Source: an uncultured Actinomycetota bacterium (GTDB lineage Bacteria > Actinomycetota > Actinomycetes > Mycobacteriales > Mycobacteriaceae). From it: DNA of 64,000 bases. The translations under genes were made by a program, and so were the position numbers. Shown here piece by piece: positions 50-39,041 of the stretch (positions are counted from its first letter, which is position 1; each line of letters begins with the position of its first letter). The stretch covers positions 397,768 through 461,767 of the forward strand of contig CAWBDP010000009.1 in NCBI GenBank assembly GCA_963787635.1, given 5' to 3'. The notes under the pieces were generated by a model. The model did not search any database. It was given only the letters and a program-made list of their open reading frames with translations, and was not told the origin of the DNA.

Positions 50-919
50 GTGCCGACCAATGAACAGCGACGTGCGTCAGCCAAGCGCAAACTCCAACGC
101 CAGCTGGAACGCCGCGCCCAGCAGGCTCGTCGGCGCCGGATCCTGACCCTGGCCGGCCTGGGGGTCGCGGTGGCCGTCGTGATCGCCGCAATCGTGACCA
201 CCGTGCTGATGACTGGCAATGACCACTCCAAGTCGACGCCGGCGGCCGCCTCGACGACGCCTTCGGATGCGGTGCCGCCGGCGCCGCCGTTGCCGTCGTT
301 CACGCCATCGGCCAACCTGGGCGCCAACTGCGAGTACCCGGCGTCCCCGGAGCCGGCCAGCAAGCCGGTGAATCCGCCGCGGACAGGCAAGGTGCCCACC
401 GACCCCGCCCAGATCAGTGTCAGCATGGTCACCGATCAGGGGAATATCGGTCTGCTGCTGGCCAACAACGAATCGCCGTGCACGGTCAACAGTTTCGCGA
501 GCCTGGTGGCACAAAAGTTTTTCGACAGCACCAGCTGCCATCGGCTGACGACGGCGCCGACGCTGAATGTGCTGCAGTGCGGTGATCCCAAGGCTGACGG
601 TCATGGTGGGCCGGGCTACCAGTTCGCCAACGAATATCCCAGCGACCAGTACAAGCCCGGCGATCCCGCGCTGGACCAGCCGGTCGTCTATCCGCGCGGC
701 ACCCTGGCGATGGCCAACTCCGGAGCCGACAGCAACGGCAGCCAGTTCTTCTTGGTGTACAAGGACTCTCAGCTACCGCCGCAGTACACCGTGTTCGGCA
801 AAATCCAAGACGACGGCCTGGCCACGTTGGACAAGATCGCCAAGGGCGGAGTCGCCGGCGGCGGTGACGACGGCGCACCTGCCATCAAGGTCACCATCAC
901 GTCGGTGCGTCTGGACTGA
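50..919 (+). CDS. ppiB: Cyclophilin-type peptidyl-prolyl cis-trans isomerase B, N-terminal membrane anchor (Rv2582 ortholog)
   Basis: Basic N-terminus MPTNEQRR followed by a TM helix; cyclophilin motifs CHRL..LQCGDP, GTLAMAN..NGSQFF and YTVFG; position next to relA. Confidence 0.93.
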   Translation: MPTNEQRRASAKRKLQRQLERRAQQARRRRILTLAGLGVAVAVVIAAIVTTVLMTGNDHSKSTPAAASTTPSDAVPPAPPLPSFTPSANLGANCEYPASPEPASKPVNPPRTGKVPTDPAQISVSMVTDQGNIGLLLANNESPCTVNSFASLVAQKFFDSTSCHRLTTAPTLNVLQCGDPKADGHGGPGYQFANEYPSDQYKPGDPALDQPVVYPRGTLAMANSGADSNGSQFFLVYKDSQLPPQYTVFGKIQDDGLATLDKIAKGGVAGGGDDGAPAIKVTITSVRLD

Positions 920-945
920 CGCGCTCTGAGTGAGCAGGAGTTCTT

Positions 946-1767
946 GTGGACGAAATGACATTCGGGCGGCTCCGATTGATCACCGCGGCGGTGCTGGTGG
1001 CGGTCGCAGCGGTGGGCTGCGGGGCGATCACCAGTCGCCGCTCCACAACGACGACAACGCACACCTGGGATCGGACGACGACGCCGAGCGCCTTCGCGAC
1101 CACCCCGTCGGCGCCGATAGCCCCGGGCCTTGCGCCACTGCCCCCGTTCGTGCCATGCGCCGAGCTGGGCGCCAACTGTCAATATCCGCCGTCGTCGGAC
1201 CCAGCCGCCAAGCCGGTGTCGGCGCCGAGGTCAGGCAAGGTGCCGACGGACCCCGCCCAGGTCAGTGTCAGCATGGTCACCGACCAGGGCAATATCGGTC
1301 TGCTGCTGGCCAACAACGAATCGCCCTGCACGGTCAATAACTTCGTCAGCCTGGCCCAACAGAAGTTCTTCGACGACACCAGCTGTCACCGGCTGACCAC
1401 GTCACCGGGACTCAGCGTGCTGCAGTGCGGTGATCCTAAGGGCGACGGTAGCGGTGGACCGGGTTACCAGTTCGCCAACGAATATCCCAGCGACCAGTAC
1501 CAGACTGGCGACCCCGCGCTCGACCGGCCGGTCGTCTACCCGCGTGGCACCCTGGCGATGGCCAACGCCGGACCGAACACCAACGGCAGCCAGTTCTTCC
1601 TGGTGTACAAGGACTCTCAGCTACCGCCGCAGTACACCGTGTTCGGCAAAATCCAGCCCGACGGGCTGGCCACCCTGGACAAGATCGCCGCGGGCGGAGT
1701 CGCCGGCGGCGGCGGCGACGGCACACCCGCCACCAAAGTCACCATCACGTCGGTGCGCCTGGACTGA
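946..1767 (+). CDS. Second cyclophilin (ppiB paralog), probable lipoprotein with Thr-rich linker
   Basis: Catalytic domain nearly identical to 50..919. New N-terminus has a hydrophobic stretch ending AAVGC (lipobox-like) and then a Thr/Ser-rich linker. Confidence 0.88.
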   Translation: MDEMTFGRLRLITAAVLVAVAAVGCGAITSRRSTTTTTHTWDRTTTPSAFATTPSAPIAPGLAPLPPFVPCAELGANCQYPPSSDPAAKPVSAPRSGKVPTDPAQVSVSMVTDQGNIGLLLANNESPCTVNNFVSLAQQKFFDDTSCHRLTTSPGLSVLQCGDPKGDGSGGPGYQFANEYPSDQYQTGDPALDRPVVYPRGTLAMANAGPNTNGSQFFLVYKDSQLPPQYTVFGKIQPDGLATLDKIAAGGVAGGGGDGTPATKVTITSVRLD

Positions 1768-1795
1768 CGCGCCGCTGCGGTGAGCAGGAGTTCTG

Positions 1796-3795
1796 GTGGA
1801 AGAAACGACATTCGGGCGGTACCAGTTCTCGAGCTTCTGGGCCGCGGCGCCATGGGCGAAGTCTTCCGTGCGCACGACACTGCCACCGACCGGGTCGTCG
1901 CGATCAAACTGTTGCCGCCGCAGCTGGCCGAAAACCTGGCGTATTAAGCAGCGATTCCGCCGCGAAGCGCGCACGGTCGGCAGGGCTCAACGACCCACAC
2001 GTGGTGCCCATCCACGATTACGGCGAGATCGACGGCCGGCTCTACGTGGACATGCCGTTGATCGAAGGCCGCGACCTGAGCCACGCTGCATCACCGAGGG
2101 TGGCCGAATGCATCCCGCTGGGGCGGTCGCGATCATCGAACAGGTCGCCGCGGCGTTGGACAGCGCCCACCAGGTGGGGTTGGTCCACGGCGATGTCAAG
2201 CCGTCGAACATCCTGGTCGACGCGCGGGAATTCGTCTATGTGACCGATTTCGGGCTCGCCCGGCTCGCCGGCGGCCCCGCGACGGCGAACACTGGGCCCA
2301 CGGGGGGCACCCTGGCCTACATGGCACCCGAGCGCCTCAGCGGAACCACTGACCCTCCTCCGACGTGTATTCGCTGGCCTGTGTGCTGCACGAGTGCCTG
2401 ACCGGGCAACGGCCCCGCCCCGGTGACAGTCTCGAACAGCAGCTCACCGACCACTTCAGCGCCCCGCCGCCGCGACCGTCGGCCAGCTGCCCGGATCTCC
2501 CCCGGCATTCGACGCGGTCATCGCCCGCGGGATGGCCAAGGACCCCGCCGAGCGCTATCAGACCGCGACAGAACTGGCCGACGCCGCGCGTGCAGCGCTG
2601 ACCAACTCCTTCGGCGCGGCACCGCCGCCGCCCGGCCCCACCGAACACGCCATGTGGCCCTCCGCCCAACCCGGCACCATCGCCGCACCGGCGTATGCGG
2701 GATCGCTTGCGCCACCGTCGGTTCCGGTCCGCATCGGCCGCTATCTCTTGATGTTCCTGATTCTGGTGGTCAGCGGCTATCTGGTGATCACGCTTGTCGC
2801 CGGCCACCACCGCGCCCAGCCCGGCATCGACCAGCTCGGGGGTACCCGGATCACGCTGACGGCACGCACCTCCGACGGCTCACCGCCCACGCCCGGGGCG
2901 CTGTCTGCAAGCACAGCACACCATCAGCGCCCGGGCCAAGGGGCTGGGGATCTCGGATGCACAGGTCGTCATCGTGGGCGACAACATCGTCGTGACGGTG
3001 CCCGGCAATAACGCCGACGAAGCACGCAGTCTCAGCCAAACCGCCCGGTTCTACATCCGGCCGGTGATCCAGGCGGTCCCGGCGGGACCTGCCCCGACCG
3101 GCGGCCCGTCGCCGGCACCGACCCCGCCGACCGGTCAAAGCGTTGCCGAGCGCATCGCGATAGAACGGCAGTTGCGGCAGAGCACCAACAAGCGAATTCA
3201 GTACATCGCGCTGGAGTTACAGGCCAGCCGGTGCGACGAGGACGACGTGCTGGCCGGCAATGACGACCCCAGCCTGCCGCTGATCACCTGCTCGACCGAC
3301 CACAAAAGCGCCTACCTGCTGGCGCCGTCGACCATCAGCGGCGACCAGATCCAAGACGCCAGCTCGGGCCTCGACAGCCGCAGCGGCGGCTACGTCGTCG
3401 ACCTGCAGTTCAACGGGCCCGCGGCCAGCACCTGGGCCGACTACACCGCCGCCAACATCGGAACCCAGGTCGCATTCACGCTGGACACCCAAGTCGTCAG
3501 CGCACCGTATATCCGGGAAGCCATCCCGGGCGGACGAACCCAGATCACCGGCGGTGACCCGCCGTTCACCAAAGATTCCGCACGCCAGCTGGCCGACGTC
3601 CTCAATTACGGGCCGCTGCCATTGGCATTCGAACCATCAGCTGCTGAATCGGTCCCGCCGAAACCTGGTGCGGCGAAAACGGTTTCGACGTGGCTGCCGG
3701 CAGCACGGACAGCGGGTGCGGTCGGACTGCTGTTGGCACTGATCGGCGCGCTGGTGATCTTGTACCTTCCCCGGTTTCGCCGGCCGCGCGTCTAG
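1796..3795 (+). pseudogene. Ser/Thr protein kinase fused to SecD TM1-periplasmic-TM2 region; about 7 frameshifts (about 666 aa if repaired)
   Basis: Stitching frames gives GRGAMGEV, VAIK, HGDVKPSN, DFG, YMAPE and DVYSL..LTG. A TM helix follows, then [62 protein letters not shown] matching SecD at 9994..11805. Shifts near 1827, 1945, 1985, 2089, 2360, 2503 and 2910. Confidence 0.8.
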
Positions 3796-6230
3796 GCCGC
3801 GGAGGTAATCCGGTAGACGTCGTAGACACCTTCGACGTTGCGGACGACGTCGAGCAGATGGCCGAGGTGCTTGGGGTCGCCCATCTCGAAGGTGAACCGG
3901 CTGATCGCCACCCGGTCGCCCGACGTGGTCACCGACGCCGACAGGATGTTCACCTTCTCGTCGGCCAGCACGCGCGTCACGTCTGACAGCAGCCGGTGCC
4001 GGTCCAGCGCCTCGACCTGGATGGCCACCAGGAACACCGACGACGGTGACGGCGCCCAGTGCACCTCGATGATCCGCTCGGCCTGCTGTTGCAGGGATGC
4101 GGCGTTGGTGCAGTCGGTCTGGTGCACGCTGACCCCACCGCCACGGGTGACGAAGCCCATGATCTGGTCGCCGGGGACCGGTGTACAGCATTTCGCCAGC
4201 TTGGTCAGCACGCCCGGGGCGCCGGGAACCGCCACCCCAATGTCGTCGGTGCTGCGCTGGCGCCGCGGCATGGTGGTCGGAGTGGACCGCTCGGCGAGCT
4301 CCTCCTCGGCCTGGTCGATGCCGCCCAACTCGGCCAGCAGGCGCTGCACGACATGCCGCGCCGACGCATGCCCCTCACCGATCGCGGTGTACAGCGCGGA
4401 CACGTCAGCGTAGTGCAGTTCGTTGGCCACGGCGGCCATCGAACCGCCACTGACCAAGCGCTGCAACGGAAGTCCGCCGCGGCGTACCTCGCGGGCCATC
4501 GCCTCTTTGCCGGTCTCCAGCGCCTCCTCGCGCCGCTCCTTGGCGAACCACTGCCGGATCTTGGTCTTGGCGCGCGGTGACACCACGAACTGCTGCCAGT
4601 CCCGCGACGGCCCGGCGTTGGCTGCCTTCGACGTGAAAACCTCGACCAGTTCCCCGTTTTCCAGCTTGCGTTCCAGCGCCACCAGCCGGCCGTTGACCCG
4701 GGCGCCGATGCAGCGGTGGCCCACCTCGGTGTGCACCGCGTAGGCGAAGTCCACCGGTGTCGATCCGAGCGGCAGGGTGATCACGTCGCCCTTCGGGGTG
4801 AAGACGAAAATCTCCTGCACCGCGAGGTCGTAACGCAGCGACTCCAGGAACTCGCCCGGGTCGGCAGCCTCCCGCTGCCAGTCGAGCAGTTGACGCATCC
4901 AGGCCATGTCGTCGATCTCAGCAGCGGCTTGCAGATGCGGAATCCCGTTGCGGCCCTTGGCTTCTTTGTAGCGCCAGTGCGCAGCGATGCCGTACTCGGC
5001 GGTGCGGTGCATGTCGCGGGTGCGGATCTGCACCTCCAGCGGCTTGCCCTCCGGCCCGACGACGGTGGTGTGCAGCGACTGGTAGACACCGTATCTGGGC
5101 TGGGCGATGTAATCCTTGAACCGACCGGCTAACGGCTGCCACAGCGAATGCACCACGCCGACAGCGGCATAACAGTCGCGGATCTCGTCACACAGGATGC
5201 GGATACCGACCAGGTCGTGGATGTCGTCGAAGTCGCGGCCCTTGACGATCATCTTCTGGTAGATCGACCAGTAGTGCTTGGGGCGGCCCTCCACGGTCGC
5301 CTTGATCTTCGACGCGTTCAAGGTGGCGACGATCTCGGCGCGCACCTTGGCCAGATAGGTGTCCCGCGACGGCGCCCGGCCGGCCACCAGCCGGACGATT
5401 TCCTCGTATTTCTTGGGATGCAGGATGGCGAACGACAGATCCTCCAGCTCCCACTTTACCGTCGCCATACCGAGCCGATGCGCAAGCGGCGCAATAACTT
5501 CCAGTGTTTCGCGGGCCTTGCGGGCCTGCTTCTCCGGCGGCAGGAAGCGCATGGTCCGCATGTTGTGCAGCCGGTCGGCCACCTTGATCACCAGCACCCG
5601 CGGGTCGCGGGCCATCGCGATGATCATCTTGCGGATCGTCTCGCCCTCGGCCGCACTGCCCAGCACCACCCGGTCCAGCTTGGTCACGCCGTCGACGAGG
5701 TGGCCGACTTCTTCGCCGAACTCCTCGGACAGCGCCTCGAGCGTGTAGCCGGTGTCCTCGACGGTGTCGTGCAGCAGTGCGGCCACCAGCGTGGTGGTAT
5801 CCATGCCCAGCTCGGCCAGGATGTTGGCGACGGCCAGCGGGTGGGTGATGTAGGGATCTCCGGAGTGGCGCACCTGGCTGGCGTGCCGCTGATCGGCCAC
5901 GTCGTAGGCGCGCTGCAGGATCGACAGGTCGGCCTTGGGGTAGACCTCCCGGTGCACGCCCACCAGCGGTTCCAGCACCGGGTTGAGCGCGCTGCGCTGG
6001 GCGGTCATCCGGCGGGCCAGCCGGGCCCGGACCCGCCGCGACGCGCTGGTGGTGGTCTTGACGGTCTCCGAGCGCGGCGACGGTTCGGGCTCGGCCTCCG
6101 GAGCCTCGGTGCGAGGCTCGGTCTCCGCCGGCGGCTCGGTGCCCGGGTCGGTCTCCTGGAGCACGTCGGAGTCCGGCAGTTCTTCGGTGACCGGCTGCAC
6201 AGCTTGGGCCGTGCCCTGGTTGTCCGCCAC
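3792..6230 (-). CDS. relA: Bifunctional (p)ppGpp synthetase/hydrolase Rel
   Basis: HD motif (ALLHDTVED), synthetase, TGS and ACT domains. Start placed at GTG 6230 behind a GGAGG RBS (ORF track extends to 6239). Confidence 0.97.
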
Positions 6231-6296
6231 GTCCGTCACCTCCGACCTCGAGGATATCGCCTCGAGCCCCGTTTTCCCGCCTACGTCGTCCCTGGG

Positions 6297-8498: not shown

Positions 8499-9989
8499 CT
8501 ACTGCCGGCCGATTTGTCGCTTGCCGGTGGGCCGCCGATGACGGCTGCTGGTGGGCCGCACCGGTCGTGCGCCCGGCGCCGGCTTGCTGGGAGCCACCAC
8601 GGTGTCCGCGGTGTCCGCCTCGGCCCCGGTGTGTCGCGGCTCGGGCACCCCAGCGTCGTCAGGGACTGTTTCGGCGGTCTTTTCGGTGGTCTTTTCAGCA
8701 GTCTTTTCCGGGGTCTTTTCAACGGTTTTTGCCGCAACCGTTCTGGACGCCGCCCTGCCGGAGGCCCTACTGGAGACCTTGTCGGTGCGCCTCCGGGAGC
8801 CTTTCCTGGCGCCCCGGCGGGAGCCGTTCTTGGCGGCCTTCCGGGAGACCCCGTCTTCTTCGGCGATTGCGGCGCCGGGGTTGCGGCGCCTGGTCACCCG
8901 CCGGGTGTGGGTGCGCACCAGCCCCGTGCGCTCACGCAGCGTGACCAGCAACGGGGTCGCGAAAAAGATCGACGAGTAGGTGCCGACGATGATTCCGACC
9001 AACTGCACCAGCGCCAGGTCTTTCAACGTGCCCACACCCAGCAGCCACACCGCCACCACCATCAGCGCCAGCACCGGCAGCACCGAGATCAGGCTCGTGT
9101 TGATCGAGCGCATGAAGGTCTGGTTGACCGCCAAGTTGGCCTGCTCGGCGAAGGTGCGCCGGGTGGTGTGCTGGAAGCCGTGGGTGTTCTCCTCGACCTT
9201 GTCGAACACGATGACGGTGTCGTAGAGGGAGAACCCCAGGATCGTCAGTAGCCCGATGACGGTGGCTGGGGTGACCTCGAAGCCGACCAGCGAGTAGACA
9301 CCTGCGGTGACGGTCAGGTCGAAGCACATGGTGGCCAGCGCGGACAAAGCCATGAAGAGCTCGTAGCGCACAAAAATGTAGAGGCCGACCAGGGCCACGA
9401 ACACAACCAGGGCGATCAGGGCTTTTTCGGTGATCTGACCGCCCCAGGTCTCCGACACCGCCGAGTCGCTGATGGCTTTCTTGTTGGGTTTGCCGTCCTG
9501 CGTGGGCTGGAACCGATCGAACAGCGCGTTCTTGAGCTTGGTGGTCTGGTCGTTGGTCAGCGTCTCCGAACGGATCTGCACCGTTGCCGAGCTGCCGCTG
9601 CCGACGATGACCACCGATTCGGGCTGCATGCCCAGGGTCTGTCGGAAGACGTCTTCGACCTGCGCGACCTGGGCCGAGCCTGTCGCGCCGACGACCGGCA
9701 TTGATACCTTGGTGCCGCCCTGGAAGTCGATCCCGAATGTGAACCCGCGAACGATGATGCTGATGATGGCGATGGCGACCATCGCCCCGCCGACGCCGTA
9801 CCAGAGCTTGCGCCGCCCTACCACCTCGAATGCGCCCGTGCCGGTGTAGAGCCGGGAGAAGAAGTTGTGGTGCGGCAGCCCCCCGGCCCCCTCGACGTCG
9901 TCGGCGTCCGGGACGGCTCCGGTGGTTTCGGTGAGCTCCTCGGCGTCGGTCGCTTCGTTGTCGGCGCTCGTGTTCGCTTTGGAAGCCAT
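8499..9989 (-). CDS. secF: Protein translocase subunit SecF with long basic C-terminal tail
   Basis: FGIDFQGGT, SLYDTVIVFDKVEEN, RSINTS motifs; start at ATG 9989. Confidence 0.96.
   Translation of the reverse strand: MASKANTSADNEATDAEELTETTGAVPDADDVEGAGGLPHHNFFSRLYTGTGAFEVVGRRKLWYGVGGAMVAIAIISIIVRGFTFGIDFQGGTKVSMPVVGATGSAQVAQVEDVFRQTLGMQPESVVIVGSGSSATVQIRSETLTNDQTTKLKNALFDRFQPTQDGKPNKKAISDSAVSETWGGQITEKALIALVVFVALVGLYIFVRYELFMALSALATMCFDLTVTAGVYSLVGFEVTPATVIGLLTILGFSLYDTVIVFDKVEENTHGFQHTTRRTFAEQANLAVNQTFMRSINTSLISVLPVLALMVVAVWLLGVGTLKDLALVQLVGIIVGTYSSIFFATPLLVTLRERTGLVRTHTRRVTRRRNPGAAIAEEDGVSRKAAKNGSRRGARKGSRRRTDKVSSRASGRAASRTVAAKTVEKTPEKTAEKTTEKTAETVPDDAGVPEPRHTGAEADTADTVVAPSKPAPGARPVRPTSSRHRRPTGKRQIGRQ
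8677..8736. repeat. 12-bp in-frame tandem repeat (gtcttttcNNNN x4-5) encoding EKT-X repeats in the SecF tail
   Basis: gtcttttcggtg / gtcttttcagca / gtcttttccggg / gtcttttcaacg / gtttttgccgca. Confidence 0.8.
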
Positions 9990-9993
9990 CTCG

Positions 9994-11805
9994 CTATCCC
10001 CGTCCCGCCGCAAGGGGCGCCGAGTGAGAAATTGCCCGCCGTTCGCGTGCGACTTGCTGGATGGCGCCCAGGCCGTTGTAGGCCGGCTTGGCCAGCCTTG
10101 TCGACTTCGACGCCAGATACACCAGCGGCCACGTCACCAGGAACACCACGACCAGGTCGAGGACCGTGGTCAGGCCCAGGGTGAAGGCGAACCCCTTCAC
10201 TTGCCCGATCGCCAGGATGTACAGCACCGCGGCCGCCAGGAACGTCACCGCGTTGCCCGAGATGATCGTCTTGCGGGCCCGCGCCCAACCGCGCGGAACC
10301 GCCGATCTGAACGATCGACCTTCGCGGATCTCGTCTTTGATGCGTTCGAAGAACACCACGAACGAGTCGGCGGTGGTGCCGATACCGATGATCAGACCGG
10401 CGATACCGGCCAGATCCAGGGTGTAGTTGATATATCGGCCCAACAGCACCAGGATCGCGAACACCATCGAGCCCGAAGCCACCAGCGACAACGCCGTCAG
10501 CAAGCCCAGCACCCGGTAGTACAGCAACGAGTACACCAGGACGAGCGCCAGACCGATGGCGCCGGCGATCATGCCGGCCCGCAGCGATGTCAATCCCAGT
10601 GTCGCCGAGACGGTTTCGGCTGACGACGACTCGAACGACAGTGGCAGCGACCCGTATTTCAAGACGTTGGCCAGCTGGCGTGCGCTAGCCGCCGTAAACG
10701 GTGGATCGCCGCCGGTGATCTGGGTCCGCCCGCCGGGGATGGCTTCCCGGATATATGGTGCGCTGACGACTTGGGAGTCCAGGGTGAACGCCGTCTGGAT
10801 CCCGACGTGGGCGGCGGTGTAGTCAGCCCAAGTATTGGTCGCGGACCCCTTGAACTGCAGGTCGACGACATAGCCGCCGCTGTGCTGGTCCAGACCCGAG
10901 CTGGCGTTTTGGATCTCCTCGCCGCTGATGATCGAGGGCGCCAGCAGATAGGCGGCCTTTTTGTCGGTCGAGCAGGTGATCAGCGGCAGGCTGGGGTCGT
11001 CGTTGCCGGCCAGCACGTCTTCCTGGTCGCACCGGCTGGCCTGTAACTCCAGCGCGATGTATTGGATTTGCCTGTTGGTGCTCTGCCGCAGCCTCTTTTC
11101 TATCGCGATGCGCTCGGCCAGTTCCTTGCGTGGATCCGGCAGCTCAGGTACGTCCGCGGGCGGCGCATCTGCCGCTGGCGGAGGCTGCTGTCCCGGCGTC
11201 GGCGTGGGCGGGGGTGTCGGCTCCAACGGGTAGGGGCGGGGCTGCGCCGGGGGTCGGCCGCTGGCCGGCGGCGCGGTAGTGGGTTCGGCGCCCGGGGATT
11301 CCGTCGGCTCGGCGCCCTGGCCGCCCGCCGGCGGTTCTTCGGCCGGCCCGGGCGGGGCTCCTGGCGGCCGCTGGGGACGTCGTTGCGGCCGGGGCAGGCC
11401 CGCCCCTTCCGGCGGAGCGGCCTGCGCCGGCACCGCCTGGATCACCGGCCGGATGAAGAGCTTCGCCGTCTGACCCAGGCTTTTGGCGTCGTCGCCGTTG
11501 CTTCCCGGCACAGTTATGACCAGGTTGTCGCCGTCGATGATGACTTCCGAGCCGGAAACACCCAGCCCGTTGACCCGGTCGCTGATGATCTGCTGCGCGC
11601 GAGACAGGGCATCGCGGCTCGGGCTGGAACCATCCGGCGTCCGCGCGGTCAGGGTGACGCGGGTACCGCCCTGCAGGTCGATGCCGAGCTTGGGGGTGGC
11701 CCGCTTGTCCCCGGTCAGAAACACCAGCAGGTAGACGCCAATGAGCAGGGCCAGAAACACCGACAGATACCGGGCAGGGTGCACCGGCGCCGAAGGCGAT
11801 GCCAC
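9994..11805 (-). CDS. secD: Protein translocase subunit SecD
   Basis: [38 protein letters not shown]; six-TM layout with a Pro-rich periplasmic insert. Confidence 0.96.
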
Positions 11806-11875
11806 GTTGTTGAGTCTCCTCGCTTGCGGGTCAGTTCGACTGCACCGGGAAAGGGTACGTGCCGTGCGGCAGACC

Positions 11876-12256
11876 TCAGTCTTTGGGCAGTCGTTCCGGG
11901 CCGCCGGCGGTCAATCGGTCCGGGTCGGCGACGAGCCCGACGTCCTCGCCGTCGACCTCGTCGGCCACCTCCATCACCTCGGGCTGCAGGTCCGTGGTCT
12001 CGATGCGGTCCCGGATTGCCAGCTTCATCCAGGTGGTCACCACACCGGGCGCGATCTCGAGGTTCACGTTGTCGTCGGTGATGTTGGTGATGGTCCCCTC
12101 CAGGCCGGAGGTGGTATGCACCCGGTCGCCGATCCGCAGCGACTCGTGCAGGTCAATGGTGGCTTGCATGGCGCGCTTTTGTTTGCGCGCACTGAAAAAC
12201 ATGAGCGCCGCGAAGCCGACGAGGAGTGGCAAGAAGAGTAAGGATTGGCTAGTCAC
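11876..12256 (-). CDS. yajC: Preprotein translocase subunit YajC
   Basis: TM helix then [28 protein letters not shown]; upstream of secD; start GTG 12256 inferred. Confidence 0.92.
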
Positions 12257-12380
12257 GGGGGCAACGATCTTTCGTGTGGGTCTCGGGATTGGCACTGGAC
12301 CGGGCGGGCCGCCGGCCCGCATAACTCCCTAGTGTGCCATTCCGCCGCTCGGCACCCCTCGGCAACGTCGATCGCAGACC

Positions 12381-36290: not shown

Positions 36291-36847
36291 GATTGGTTGG
36301 CCCATTCGGTGGCCAGCAACCGGCGGGTGTCGCGCAGCAGCTGCGGAAGGACCTTGGAGTCGCCGATAATCGTGATGAAGTTCGCGTCGCCACCCCAGCG
36401 CGGCACCACGTGCACGTGCAGGTGCTCGGCCAGCGAGCCGCCCGCCGAGGTGCCCAGGTTCAGCCCGACATTGAAACCATGCGGCCGCGAGACGTTTTTG
36501 ATGACGCGAATCGCTCTCTGCGTGAACGCCATCAGCTCCACGCTCTCCGGGTCGGTGAGATCCTCGAGTTCGGATACCCGCCGATAGGGCACCACCATCA
36601 GGTGTCCGGGGTTGTACGGGTAGAGGTTCAGCACGGCGTAGACCAGTTCCCCCCGGGCAACCACCAGACCCTCCTCGTCGGACAGCTGCGGGATGTCGGT
36701 GAAAGGCTGCTCAGGGTCTGAGTTTGCCCGCCGCAGCGGCGCCTCGGCCAGGTAACTCATCCGGTAGGGCGTCCACAGGCGCTGCAGATGGTCGGACTCA
36801 CCGACCCCTCTGTCGACGATCGGGTCGTCCCGCTCGTCGCTACCCAT
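36287..36847 (-). CDS. HIT-family Ap4A phosphorylase (Rv2613c-like)
   Basis: [33 protein letters not shown]. Confidence 0.93.
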
Positions 36848-38947
36848 GGCTGCCCGCCTTCACCAGATCCGCGGTGGGAGCTGAGTTTTCGCGCGCCGCG
36901 AGCCAGCCCACGATGGTGGCCACCGCGTCGTCGCGGGCCACCCCGTTGATCTGGGTGCGGTCGCCGAACCGGAAGCTCACCGCGCCGGCGGCGACGTCGC
37001 GGTCTCCGGCCAGCAGCATGAACGGCACCTTCTGGTTGGTGTGGTGGACGATCTTCTTGGCCATCCGGTCGTCGCTGGAATCCACCTCGACCCGCACCCC
37101 ATGCAACTTAAGTTGTGCGGCAACGCCGTTCAGGTAGGGCACGTGGCCATCGGCAACCGGGATGCCGACCACCTGCACCGGCGCCAGCCAAGCCGGGAAC
37201 GCGCCGGCGTAGTGCTCGGTGAGGATGCCGAAGAACCGTTCGATCGACCCGAACAGCGCGCGGTGGATCATCACCGGCCGCTGCCGGGTTCCGTCGGCCG
37301 CGGTGTATTCCAGATCGAACCGCTCCGGGAAGTTGAAGTCCACCTGGATGGTCGACATCTGCCAGCTGCGGCCCAGCGCGTCGCGGGCCTGCACGGAGAT
37401 CTTCGGGCCGTAGAAAGCCGCCCCACCCGGGTCGGGAACCAGGTGCAGGCCCGAGTCCGCCGCCACCTCGGCCAGGACGTTGGTGGCCTGGTCCCACATC
37501 TCGTCGGAGCCGACGAACTTGTCCGGATCTTTGGTGGACAGCTCCAGGTAGAAGTCCGCCAGGCCGTAATCGCCGAGCAGGTCGAGCACGAACCGCAGCA
37601 GCGACGCCAGCTCGGCGCGCAGCTGGTCGTGGGTGCAGTAGATGTGCGCGTCGTCCATGGTGAACCCGCGCGCCCGGGTCAGCCCGTGTATCACACCGGA
37701 TTTCTCATACCGGTAGACGGTGCCGAACTCGAAGAGCCGCAACGGAAGTTCACGATAGGACCGGCCCCGGGACCGGTAGATCAGGGTGTGCATCGGGCAG
37801 TTCATCGGCTTGAGGTAATAGTCCTGCCCGGGCTTGCGCAGCGTTGCTCGTCGTCGTATTCGGCGTCGAGGTGCATCGGGGGGAACATGCCGTCGGCGTA
37901 CCAGTCCAGGTGCCCCGAGGTGTGGAACAGCTCGGCTTTGGTGATGTGCGGGGTGTTGACGAATTCGTAGCCGGCCTCAATGTGCTTGCGTCGCGAATAC
38001 TCCTCCAGCTCCCGGCGCACGATGCCACCCTTCGGGTGGAAAACCGCCAGACCCGAGCCGATTTCGTCGGGAAAGCTGAACAGGTCCAGCTCGGCGCCCA
38101 GCTTGCGGTGGTCGCGGCGCTGGGCTTCCTCCAGCAAGTGCAGGTGACGGTCGAGCGCTTCCGGTGACTCCCAGGCCGTGCCGTAAATGCGTTGCAGGCT
38201 GGCGTTGTTCTGGTCGCCGCGCCAGTAGGCGGCCGAGCTGCGGGTCAGCGTGAACGCCGGGATGTGTTTCGTGGTCGGGATATGCGGACCACGGCACAAA
38301 TCGCCCCAAACCCGTTCGCGGGTACGGGGATTGAGGTTATCGTAGGCGGTCAGCTCGTCGCCGCCGACCTCCATGACCGCGGGATCACCGGACTTGTCGT
38401 CGACGAGCTGCAGCTTGTAGGGCTCGTCGGCCAATTCGGCGCGGGCCTGCTCTTGGGATTCGTAGACCCGCCGGTCAAAAAGCTGCCCGTCCTTGACGAT
38501 CTGGCGCATCCGCTTCTCCAGCGCCACCAGGTCCTCCGGGGTGAACGGCTCGGGCACGTCGAAGTCGTAGTAGAACCCGTCGATGATCGGCGGCCCGATC
38601 CCCAGCCTGGCCTGCGGGAAGAGGTCCTGGACAGCCTGGGCCAGCACGTGCGCGCAGGAGTGCCGGATGACGCTGCGGCCGTCGTCGGTGTCGGCCGCCA
38701 CTGGGATGGCCTCGGCGTCGTGGTCGGGTACCCAACTCAGGTCACGCAACGCGCCGTCGGCGTCGCGCACCACGACGATCGCATCCGGCGCGCCCCGGCC
38801 CGGCAAGCCGGCATCCCGAACCGCGGCGGCCGCGGTCGTCCCGGCAGGAACCCGGATCGGTGCTTGCGGTGACTGCGAACCCGGCTCAGCCGGGTGCCGC
38901 GGGTCACCGCCATCGGCGCCTGGGACGGGCTGTGCGGGGGCGCTCAC
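36840..38947 (-). CDS. thrS: Threonine--tRNA ligase (1-bp frameshift near 37848)
   Basis: [46 protein letters not shown]; split over two ORFs, about 702 aa if repaired. Confidence 0.96.
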
Positions 38948-39041
38948 GGCGTGCTCTCCAGAAGGTGTCAAGGGTCTCGCAGGGTTATCCAACGGTAGGC
39001 GACCATGCTATCGGGGCGACTGCTCAACGCGGGCCGCAGCC

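Follow-up and report, generated by a model that had tools for sequence, protein, structure and literature searches.

What occupies the interval between the cyclophilin gene ppiB and the convergent relA in an uncultured mycobacterium, and does it work? The question is raised by a stretch of 64,000 nucleotides (the window; ~67% GC) from an uncultured Actinomycetota bacterium of the Mycobacteriaceae (assembly GCA_963787635.1, contig CAWBDP010000009.1, positions 397,768 to 461,767). The original prediction placed an envelope protein-folding operon at its start: three co-directional genes, 26 and 28 bp apart, for a membrane-anchored peptidyl-prolyl isomerase (PPIase), a lipoprotein-type PPIase and a kinase with a SecD head. 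Gaps, direction and both cyclophilin open reading frames (ORFs) are present as described. The third unit is not one open frame; reading it through takes seven frame changes. The best explanation for the whole is ppiB, a chimeric duplicate of it (ppi2) and a SecD-headed receptor kinase that was inactivated in this genome, with a probability of about 0.72; for the inactivation of the kinase unit, a recent event, it is about 0.72-0.8. The order is ppiB, ppi2 and the kinase/SecD-like stretch facing relA, followed by apt, a gene for a substrate-binding protein (SBP gene), secF, secD and yajC. The interval has these features (TM, transmembrane helix):

50..919, plus strand: ppiB (ppi1), 289 amino acids, with PF00160 (Pro_isomerase) at 2e-25 over residues 124-287.
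920..945, plus strand: intergenic region 1, 26 bp, with AGGAG at 936-940, 5 nt upstream of GTG 946.
946..1767, plus strand: ppi2, the second cyclophilin gene, 273 amino acids, with PF00160 at 7e-28.
1768..1795, plus strand: intergenic region 2, 28 bp, with AGGAG at 1786-1790, 5 nt upstream of GTG 1796.
1796..3795, plus strand: receptor Ser/Thr kinase with frameshifts, joined to SecD (TM1-P1-TM2); probably a pseudogene, from alignment to the intact proteins P0001 and P0002.
2974..3795, plus strand: open remnant of 273 codons, from the last part of the P1 base through the P1 head and TM2; PF22599 at 1e-26.
3792..3795: CTAG, the overlapping stops of the kinase remnant (plus) and relA (minus), TAG on each strand.
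3792..6239, minus strand: relA, 815 amino acids, convergent and intact, with the Pfam domains HD_4, RelA_SpoT, TGS and ACT.

The kinase unit (1796-3795) splits into the ORFs 1796..2401, 2423..2995, 2532..3011 and 2974..3795 in three frames. Frameshift-aware protein-to-DNA alignment with two intact homologues located the seven frame changes at ~1827, 1945, 1976, 2083, 2355, 2500 and 2907. Four to five of them are inside the kinase domain. No open frame runs through the kinase subdomains I-XI, the Pfam match to the kinase in a single frame covers only profile positions 89-172 of 263, and the 273 codons of the remnant are the only long open part. Homology to kinases and to SecDF_P1_head, as predicted, is present; the reading frame is broken. 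When the frames are bridged, VAIK, DFG and APE motifs are present and HRD reads HGD; the arginine, invariant in 19/19 intact family members, is replaced by glycine. The shifts are a mixture of +1 and -1, and six of the seven are outside homopolymers; the one at ~2500 is in a C5/C6 homopolymer. Programmed frameshifting and an alternative genetic code were ruled out: seven shifts go in both directions and have no common motif.

Intact relatives define what the unit was. The kinase-SecD(P1) family was delimited as proteins of 580-700 amino acids with PF00069 and PF22599. The stitched product of 665 amino acids shares 45-62% identity with intact proteins of this kind over 91-100% coverage; homologues of 590-690 amino acids were matched. 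These come from soil metagenomes, metagenome-assembled genomes, Mycolicibacterium komossense (P0021), Mycolicibacter minnesotensis (P0035) and others. Two of their loci, L013 and L014, have the intact gene in the same slot. In L014, ppiB is followed by kinase-SecD and the facing relA; in L013, a kinase-PpiB gene and a 57-aa ORF are located between ppiB and kinase-SecD. Gaps are 22-34 bp in both. The collinear order of kinase, juxtamembrane region, TM1, P1 and TM2 and the shared ppiB–relA slot indicate that the window gene belongs to this family as a decayed copy.

Is the decay real or an artefact of the assembly? A background frameshift rate was obtained by comparing conserved coding sequence in the surroundings of the window (~36 kb) with M. 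paraense-like loci. It amounts to 2 frameshifts, one each in the essential genes hisS and thrS, or ~0.055 per kb. The kinase has 7 frameshifts in 1.1 kb, a density ~100x the background. Close to it, ppiB, ppi2, relA, apt, the SBP gene, secF and secD are intact, and more than 10 kb of flanking genes are clean. The splits in hisS and thrS are most likely assembly indel errors; as both genes are essential, the assembly does contain such errors. The thrS gene (window 36840-38992, minus strand) is split once at ~37,805-37,844 into the ORFs 36840..37805 and 37802..38992. The hisS gene is split once at codon ~171, ~1.24 kb upstream of window position 1 (contig C9, ~396527). Each break follows a CGACGAC motif.

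Several points weigh against a pseudogene. With indel errors in hisS and thrS, some or all of the seven shifts could be consensus errors as well. Of 95 family-invariant residues the stitched protein retains 90, a number that some intact members do not exceed. Its P1 head has a ratio of nonsynonymous to synonymous substitution rates (dN/dS) of 0.34 against secD, and there is little sign of decay besides the frameshifts and HGD. The last 890 nt are free of frameshifts (P = 0.016 under uniform spread). A kinase-SecD gene was present in 0/18 of the nearest sampled species (relA 3' end 87-90% identical in nucleotides), which have kinase-PpiB fusions or nothing instead. The retained residues and the dN/dS value imply that inactivation, if real, was recent.

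In an alternative reading, the living organism has an intact kinase, the seven shifts are consensus errors, for example of a poorly polished or strain-mixed stretch, and the ppiB–ppi2–kinase-SecD module is present and potentially functional. The frameshifted essential genes, a genome completeness of just 92.4%, the conservation of the stitched product, the motifs VAIK, DFG and APE recovered on bridging and the homopolymer at ~2500 agree with it. It is unlikely in view of the frameshift density with clean flanks and of the mixed insertions and deletions, six of seven outside homopolymers. Furthermore, the change of HRD to HGD is a substitution and not an indel. The homopolymer context did not separate the kinase frameshifts from those of hisS and thrS.

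Paralogues provide another argument for decay and against consensus errors: multi-hit frame disruption is in excess among them. Of the 52 PknE-like kinase loci in the genome, 38 are intact in one frame, 2 are truncated and 12 are frame-disrupted, 4 of these more than once. Such numbers agree with real decay in a birth-and-death evolution of an expanded family. Most relatives have ~15-17 matches for such loci; examples in this genome are C2:272927-273718, C9:76067-76871 and C9:84409-84940. Decay in the same slot was also found in other genomes: frameshifts in L098 and L118, a cyclophilin remnant in L104 and a P1 domain without kinase in L099.

Could the 273-codon remnant have survived on its own? 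A separate P1-head protein, anchored by its C-terminus and with some function, would have an open frame with a GTG start, and all frameshifts are located upstream of it. Its dN/dS against secD, given above, would agree with a function, and a kinase-less TM-P1-TM protein is known in L099. This is very improbable. The remnant is without TM1 or signal sequence, so the head would remain cytoplasmic, and no ribosome-binding site is evident upstream of 2974. The L099 protein retains TM1, unlike the remnant. The dN/dS mainly reflects the history before inactivation. An inactivated kinase-SecD gene remains the preferred reading for the entire unit.

The sensor part of the kinase derives from SecD. The stitched product starts with a Hanks kinase and a juxtamembrane linker; two TM helices follow, with ~300 extracytoplasmic residues between them, and a short tail ends it. 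On the DNA, the kinase spans ~1796-2640, followed by the juxtamembrane region, TM1 (~2742-2804), P1 base and head (~2820-3650) and TM2 (~3712-3768). Residues 304-653 align to residues 1-428 of the own SecD, comprising TM1, the GG motif, P1 base, head and TM2; the Pro-rich insert of SecD is missing. Identity is 57% in the first part and 72% of amino acids in the P1 head. Homology ends at SecD residue 428, past TM2. PF02355 (SecD_SecF_C) had no match in the ORFs of the window kinase unit or in the intact family members. Without this domain, the SecD fragment would serve as an ectodomain and not as a translocase subunit.

The remnant matched PF22599 (SecDF_P1_head) with 93.2 bits (cut-off 27) and TIGR01129 (secD) with 1.6e-44 and 152.7, under the cut-off of 244.4. 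A sequence search against the PDB gave SecDF 5xan at 2e-14; SecDF of both D. radiodurans and T. thermophilus were matched. The AlphaFold2 (AF2) model of the remnant has a pLDDT of 83.8, and all its Foldseek matches with E <= 1e-4 are SecDF (3aqo, 5yhf, 5xan, 3aqp, 5mg3).

The parent gene is close by. As predicted, yajC, secD and secF are located a few kb away, at 8499-12322 beyond relA, apt and the SBP gene. According to Pfam, relA, apt, the SBP_bac_5 gene, secF, secD and yajC span 3.8-12.3 kb:

8499..10013: secF, flanking secD (Pfam).
9994..11805, minus strand: secD, 603 amino acids (Pfam); parent and likely conversion donor of the kinase ectodomain.
11876..12322: yajC, flanking secD (Pfam).

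The P1 head of the window is 84.2% identical to its own secD over 520 nt. Against secD of other species it reaches 73-79%, against orthologous kinase genes 67-70%. The P1 head of L014 shares 92.8% of nucleotides with its own secD. A P1 tree showed the kinase ectodomains interleaved with SecDs, and the approximately unbiased (AU) test rejected a single clade of kinase P1 domains with p = 0.0007. A point against the reading is that the tested group was named only after the tree was seen. The P1 head was probably partly homogenised with the resident secD, 7 kb off, through gene conversion. Conversion of each sensor by its neighbouring parent gene is the simplest reading; the alternative is repeated independent recruitment.

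The synonymous divergence (dS) is nearly equal in both paralogue pairs of the window: 0.38 for ppi1/ppi2 and 0.39 for the kinase P1 head and the secD head (3300-3640 compared with the secD head). This could be a coincidence or indicate a shared time of duplication or conversion.

Where does the second cyclophilin come from? The first one is the regular ppiB. In ppi1, a basic cytosolic N-terminus leads into a single TM helix, and a linker rich in Pro and Thr connects this to the cyclophilin domain; the gene is collinear and syntenic with the ppiB that adjoins hisS and relA in 25 other mycobacterial loci. Both proteins cover PF00160 positions 2-158 of 159, with 90.2 bits for ppi1 and 98.2 bits for ppi2 (cut-off 21.7). 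The ppi2 gene is composed differently at its start. The first 24 nt (946-969) are a copy of the kinase start, followed by a hydrophobic segment, a Thr/Pro linker and the cyclophilin domain. Codons 1-8 read VDEMTFGR and correspond to VEETTFGR of the kinase; the ribosome-binding site is likewise a copy. Homology to the kinase start stops after GTGGACGAAATGACATTCGGGCGG. The residues after codon 8 (LRLITAAVLVAVAAV) are similar to the segment before and within the TM helix of PpiB (RRRILTLAGLGVAVAVV).

Alignment showed that intergenic regions 1 and 2 are homologous. In windows of 50 nt, 72-98% identity extends from ~nt 290 of ppi1 through the stop codon and the intergenic region into the first 24 nt of the next gene. 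From ~nt 1200 on, ppi2 and ppi1 share 85% of amino acids and ~88% of nucleotides; the TM/linker part shares ~42% of amino acids. A tandem duplication of a unit of ~850 nt (120-969 / 970-1819), which starts within ppiB and ends at codon 8 of the gene behind it, would have given rise to ppi2. The end of the unit at codon 8 of the kinase explains how ppi2 inherited the kinase ribosome-binding site and first eight codons. A like event that ended at the end of the kinase juxtamembrane region would yield kinase-PpiB fusions.

Such fusions (PknCyp) suggest a second origin: ppi2 may be the leftover of one whose kinase domain was lost when codon 9 up to the membrane segment was deleted in frame. PknCyp occupies exactly the position of ppi2 in 13/25 surveyed loci, including the nearest species, and is the commonest occupant of the slot in relatives. 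The retained eight codons and the far stronger divergence of the TM/linker than of the remaining gene would also fit a deletion. We regard this origin as the less likely one. The TM/linker of ppi2 is not nearer to PknCyp linkers (33-40%) than to PpiB linkers (40-48%), and tblastn showed no clear affinity of this part. Cyclophilin domains pair within genomes, and that of ppi2 groups with its own ppiB and not with the diverged PknCyp domains of near relatives. Both intergenic regions and the start match the prediction of a simple 850-nt tandem duplication. Gene conversion blurs both tests. Among 15 billion proteins, ppi1, ppi2 and the remnant ORF are singleton clusters, and no near-identical strain was found for comparison.

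The duplicate appears to have stayed in use. The active-site motifs HR, QCGDP, AMAN and GSQFF are kept in alignments to the PDB cyclophilins 7l6y and 1w74. For 335-916 compared with 1183-1764, ppi1 and ppi2 have a dN/dS of 0.25, which indicates that ppi2 is probably functional. A lipobox has the pattern [LVI/A][ASTVI][GAS]C and is preceded by a positive N-region and a hydrophobic stretch. As read from the sequence alone, ppi2 has a lipobox-like AAVGC with the cysteine at residue 25 (residue 22 from an internal ATG), preceded by LITAAVLVAVAAVG, R8 and R10. The envisaged TM-anchored PPIase agrees with the N-terminal hydrophobic anchor of ppi1, and ppi2 may be of the envisaged lipoprotein type. 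The ppi2 product is probably a working, possibly lipid-anchored, extracytoplasmic PPIase of the cell envelope under purifying selection.

Promoter-like or terminator-like sites were not found at the 26-bp and 28-bp junctions. Such short gaps are compatible with co-transcription and are no evidence for it. At the other end, the CTAG at 3792-3795 indeed supplies the stop codons of both strands, as had been noticed. The 4-nt overlap of convergent stops recurs as CTAG in L013 (9893-9896) and as TTAG in L014 (9851-9854). Its conservation in three distant genomes leaves no room for a terminator between the kinase gene and relA.

How widespread is this arrangement? The ppiB–relA interval was inspected directly in 25 other mycobacterial genomes. 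PF22599 counts per genome overcount second P1 copies: SecD can match twice, and genome G146 holds just PknCyp. Slot inspection was used instead. The slot is variable across the genus:

Kinase-PpiB: 13/25 genomes, one with three tandem copies, two frameshifted.
SecD-P1 paralogue: 4/25 genomes; kinase-fused in L013 and L014, a 1003-aa mosaic in L015, kinase-less in L099.
Kinase of ~380 amino acids without ectodomain: 2/25 genomes.
Nothing recognisable: ~6/25 genomes.

The gene order and co-occurrence behind the original prediction are thus supported in other genomes. Intact kinase-SecD is part of the ppiB–relA slot in L013 and L014, directly behind ppiB and with the stop overlap to relA. A second cyclophilin domain accompanies the kinase clade at most of the loci surveyed, as a rule as part of a fusion protein. 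The absence of co-occurrence that would have spoken against the original prediction was not observed. The sister type has the same kinase clade and the entire PpiB with cytosolic helix, TM, linker and cyclophilin. In the kinase-domain tree, both types form one clade, distinct from PknD-like kinases; the placement of the window kinase with the SecD or PpiB type was not resolved by this tree. A contig scan with the fusion-family alignment gave generic kinases only, due to the choice of kinase-only peptide patterns, and has no bearing on the distribution of the fusion.

In the set of 19 intact kinase-SecD proteins, VAIK, HRD and DFG are nearly always kept; the lysine of VAIK and the aspartate of DFG are missing from P0017. 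Eight of the 19 are without ~20 residues between DFG and subdomain IX, that is, activation loop and APE. These members (P0007-P0012, P0017 and P0019; e.g., L013:8001-9896 and L014:8001-9854) form one clade, have kept the ectodomain and are probably pseudokinases, judged from the missing loop. P0001, P0002 and P0021 are of the type with a complete activation loop.

Further variants were observed. L118:28-5410 (G010) has three tandem kinase-PpiB genes after ppiB, with the relA-proximal copy frameshifted in the cyclophilin domain. In the mosaic of 1003 amino acids in L015:8001-11012 (P0028, Mycobacterium sp. pUA109), a degenerate, truncated kinase is combined with a SecD P1 head and several TM helices, and a cyclophilin forms the C-terminus. 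L099:12160-13119, on a Mycolicibacterium wolinskyi-like contig, encodes the kinase-less TM-P1-TM SecD paralogue after ppiB and a second cyclophilin gene. Kinase-only versions of the same clade are located in the slot at L109:5325-6095 and L119:3819-4595. Proteins of ~380-390 amino acids without ectodomain include P0091, P0095, P0113 and P0120. P0018 (847 amino acids) has a kinase, a P1 head and a DsbA-like Thioredoxin_4 domain.

In databases, the kinase-SecD and kinase-PpiB proteins are labelled "SecD" or "protein kinase domain-containing protein". Literature searches did not find a published description of kinase-SecD or kinase-cyclophilin receptor kinases. The family is real and apparently undescribed.

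What would such proteins do? In the intact relatives, ppiB and the kinase or kinases would be co-transcribed. The kinase would be cytoplasmic and P1 outside the membrane, where P1 may, like the SecD head, bind secretory proteins that emerge unfolded, or may dock on Sec components. The PpiB ectodomain may meet the unfolded exported proteins of PpiB or Sec partners. The PknE-like kinase could report the load of secretion and folding by Ser/Thr phosphorylation. Sensing at the Sec translocon, as proposed in the original prediction, is purely inferred. The envelope-folding module itself is supported by the association across genomes and contradicted by the destroyed kinase frame here. For this reason, a functional three-gene operon is most likely not operative in this organism: the kinase arm is most likely dead, and two cyclophilins are left.

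Tentatively, these proteins may represent an undescribed class of mycobacterial receptor Ser/Thr kinases, with sensors copied from neighbouring genes of envelope biogenesis, either SecD TM1-P1-TM2 or the whole PpiB. Gene conversion would keep the sensor matched to its parent, and intact kinases would monitor Sec export or folding load by phosphorylation, for example via substrates or partners of SecD and PpiB. The window copy would be a recently lost member.

For annotation, the "SecD-kinase" of this genome should be entered as a probable pseudogene, or be marked for re-sequencing, rather than as a working sensor. As evidence of a functional three-gene operon, the locus is unsuitable. It is of moderate interest itself; the interest is higher for the family, PknE-like receptor kinases of one clade that many mycobacteria have between ppiB and relA, with a recycled copy of PpiB or of the substrate-binding SecD P1 as sensor. 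Which signals activate the receptor kinases of mycobacteria is known in few cases. An ectodomain whose parent and partners are known (unfolded preproteins, SecF/SecYEG, prolyl substrates) enables a directly testable hypothesis of what such a kinase senses. The locus is also a compact natural case of several processes: a gene born by tandem duplication with a start of chimeric origin, domains recruited from neighbouring genes, a sensor that evolves in concert with its parent, and repeated decay.

The layout is common to PknE, PknB and PknD of Mycobacterium tuberculosis: an N-terminal cytoplasmic Hanks kinase, a juxtamembrane linker, a TM helix and an extracytoplasmic sensor. PknE (PDB 2h34) is the closest solved kinase to the kinase domain of the intact P0001, with 53% identity and a TM-score of 0.87 for the AF2 model. 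In contrast to PknE-type receptors, the sensor here is SecD TM1-P1-TM2, so that the protein crosses the membrane twice and ends in a short cytoplasmic tail; the sister type uses the whole PpiB. The sensor domains of M. tuberculosis Ser/Thr protein kinases include a DsbG homologue, which has the fold of a folding catalyst (PMC1847690). This is a precedent for such a fold as a kinase sensor.

The ectodomain is collinear with residues 1-428 of mycobacterial SecD and corresponds to P1 of SecD/SecDF from T. thermophilus (3aqo/3aqp) and D. radiodurans (5xan). Unlike SecD, it has no TM3-6 and no SecD_SecF_C, which rules out a proton-driven SecDF core. It also carries a kinase and is without the Pro-rich insert (SecD residues 134-226).

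StpK7 (MSMEG_1200, NF052427) is the best NCBIfam match for kinase and juxtamembrane region of the intact members, with 447-464 bits. The score is far under the cut-off of 900 bits and covers only profile positions 5-346 of 601; kinase-SecD proteins are not members. StpK7 is part of a BREX-like island and not of a ppiB–relA locus (PMC13355554).

For the cyclophilins, the reference is PpiB of M. tuberculosis. Its position and architecture are equal to those of ppi1, and ppi2 shares its catalytic domain. This membrane-anchored cyclophilin is Rv2582, in the order hisS-...-ppiB facing relA. In comparison, the window has a second copy with a chimeric, lipoprotein-like N-terminus, and relatives fuse the whole PpiB to a kinase.

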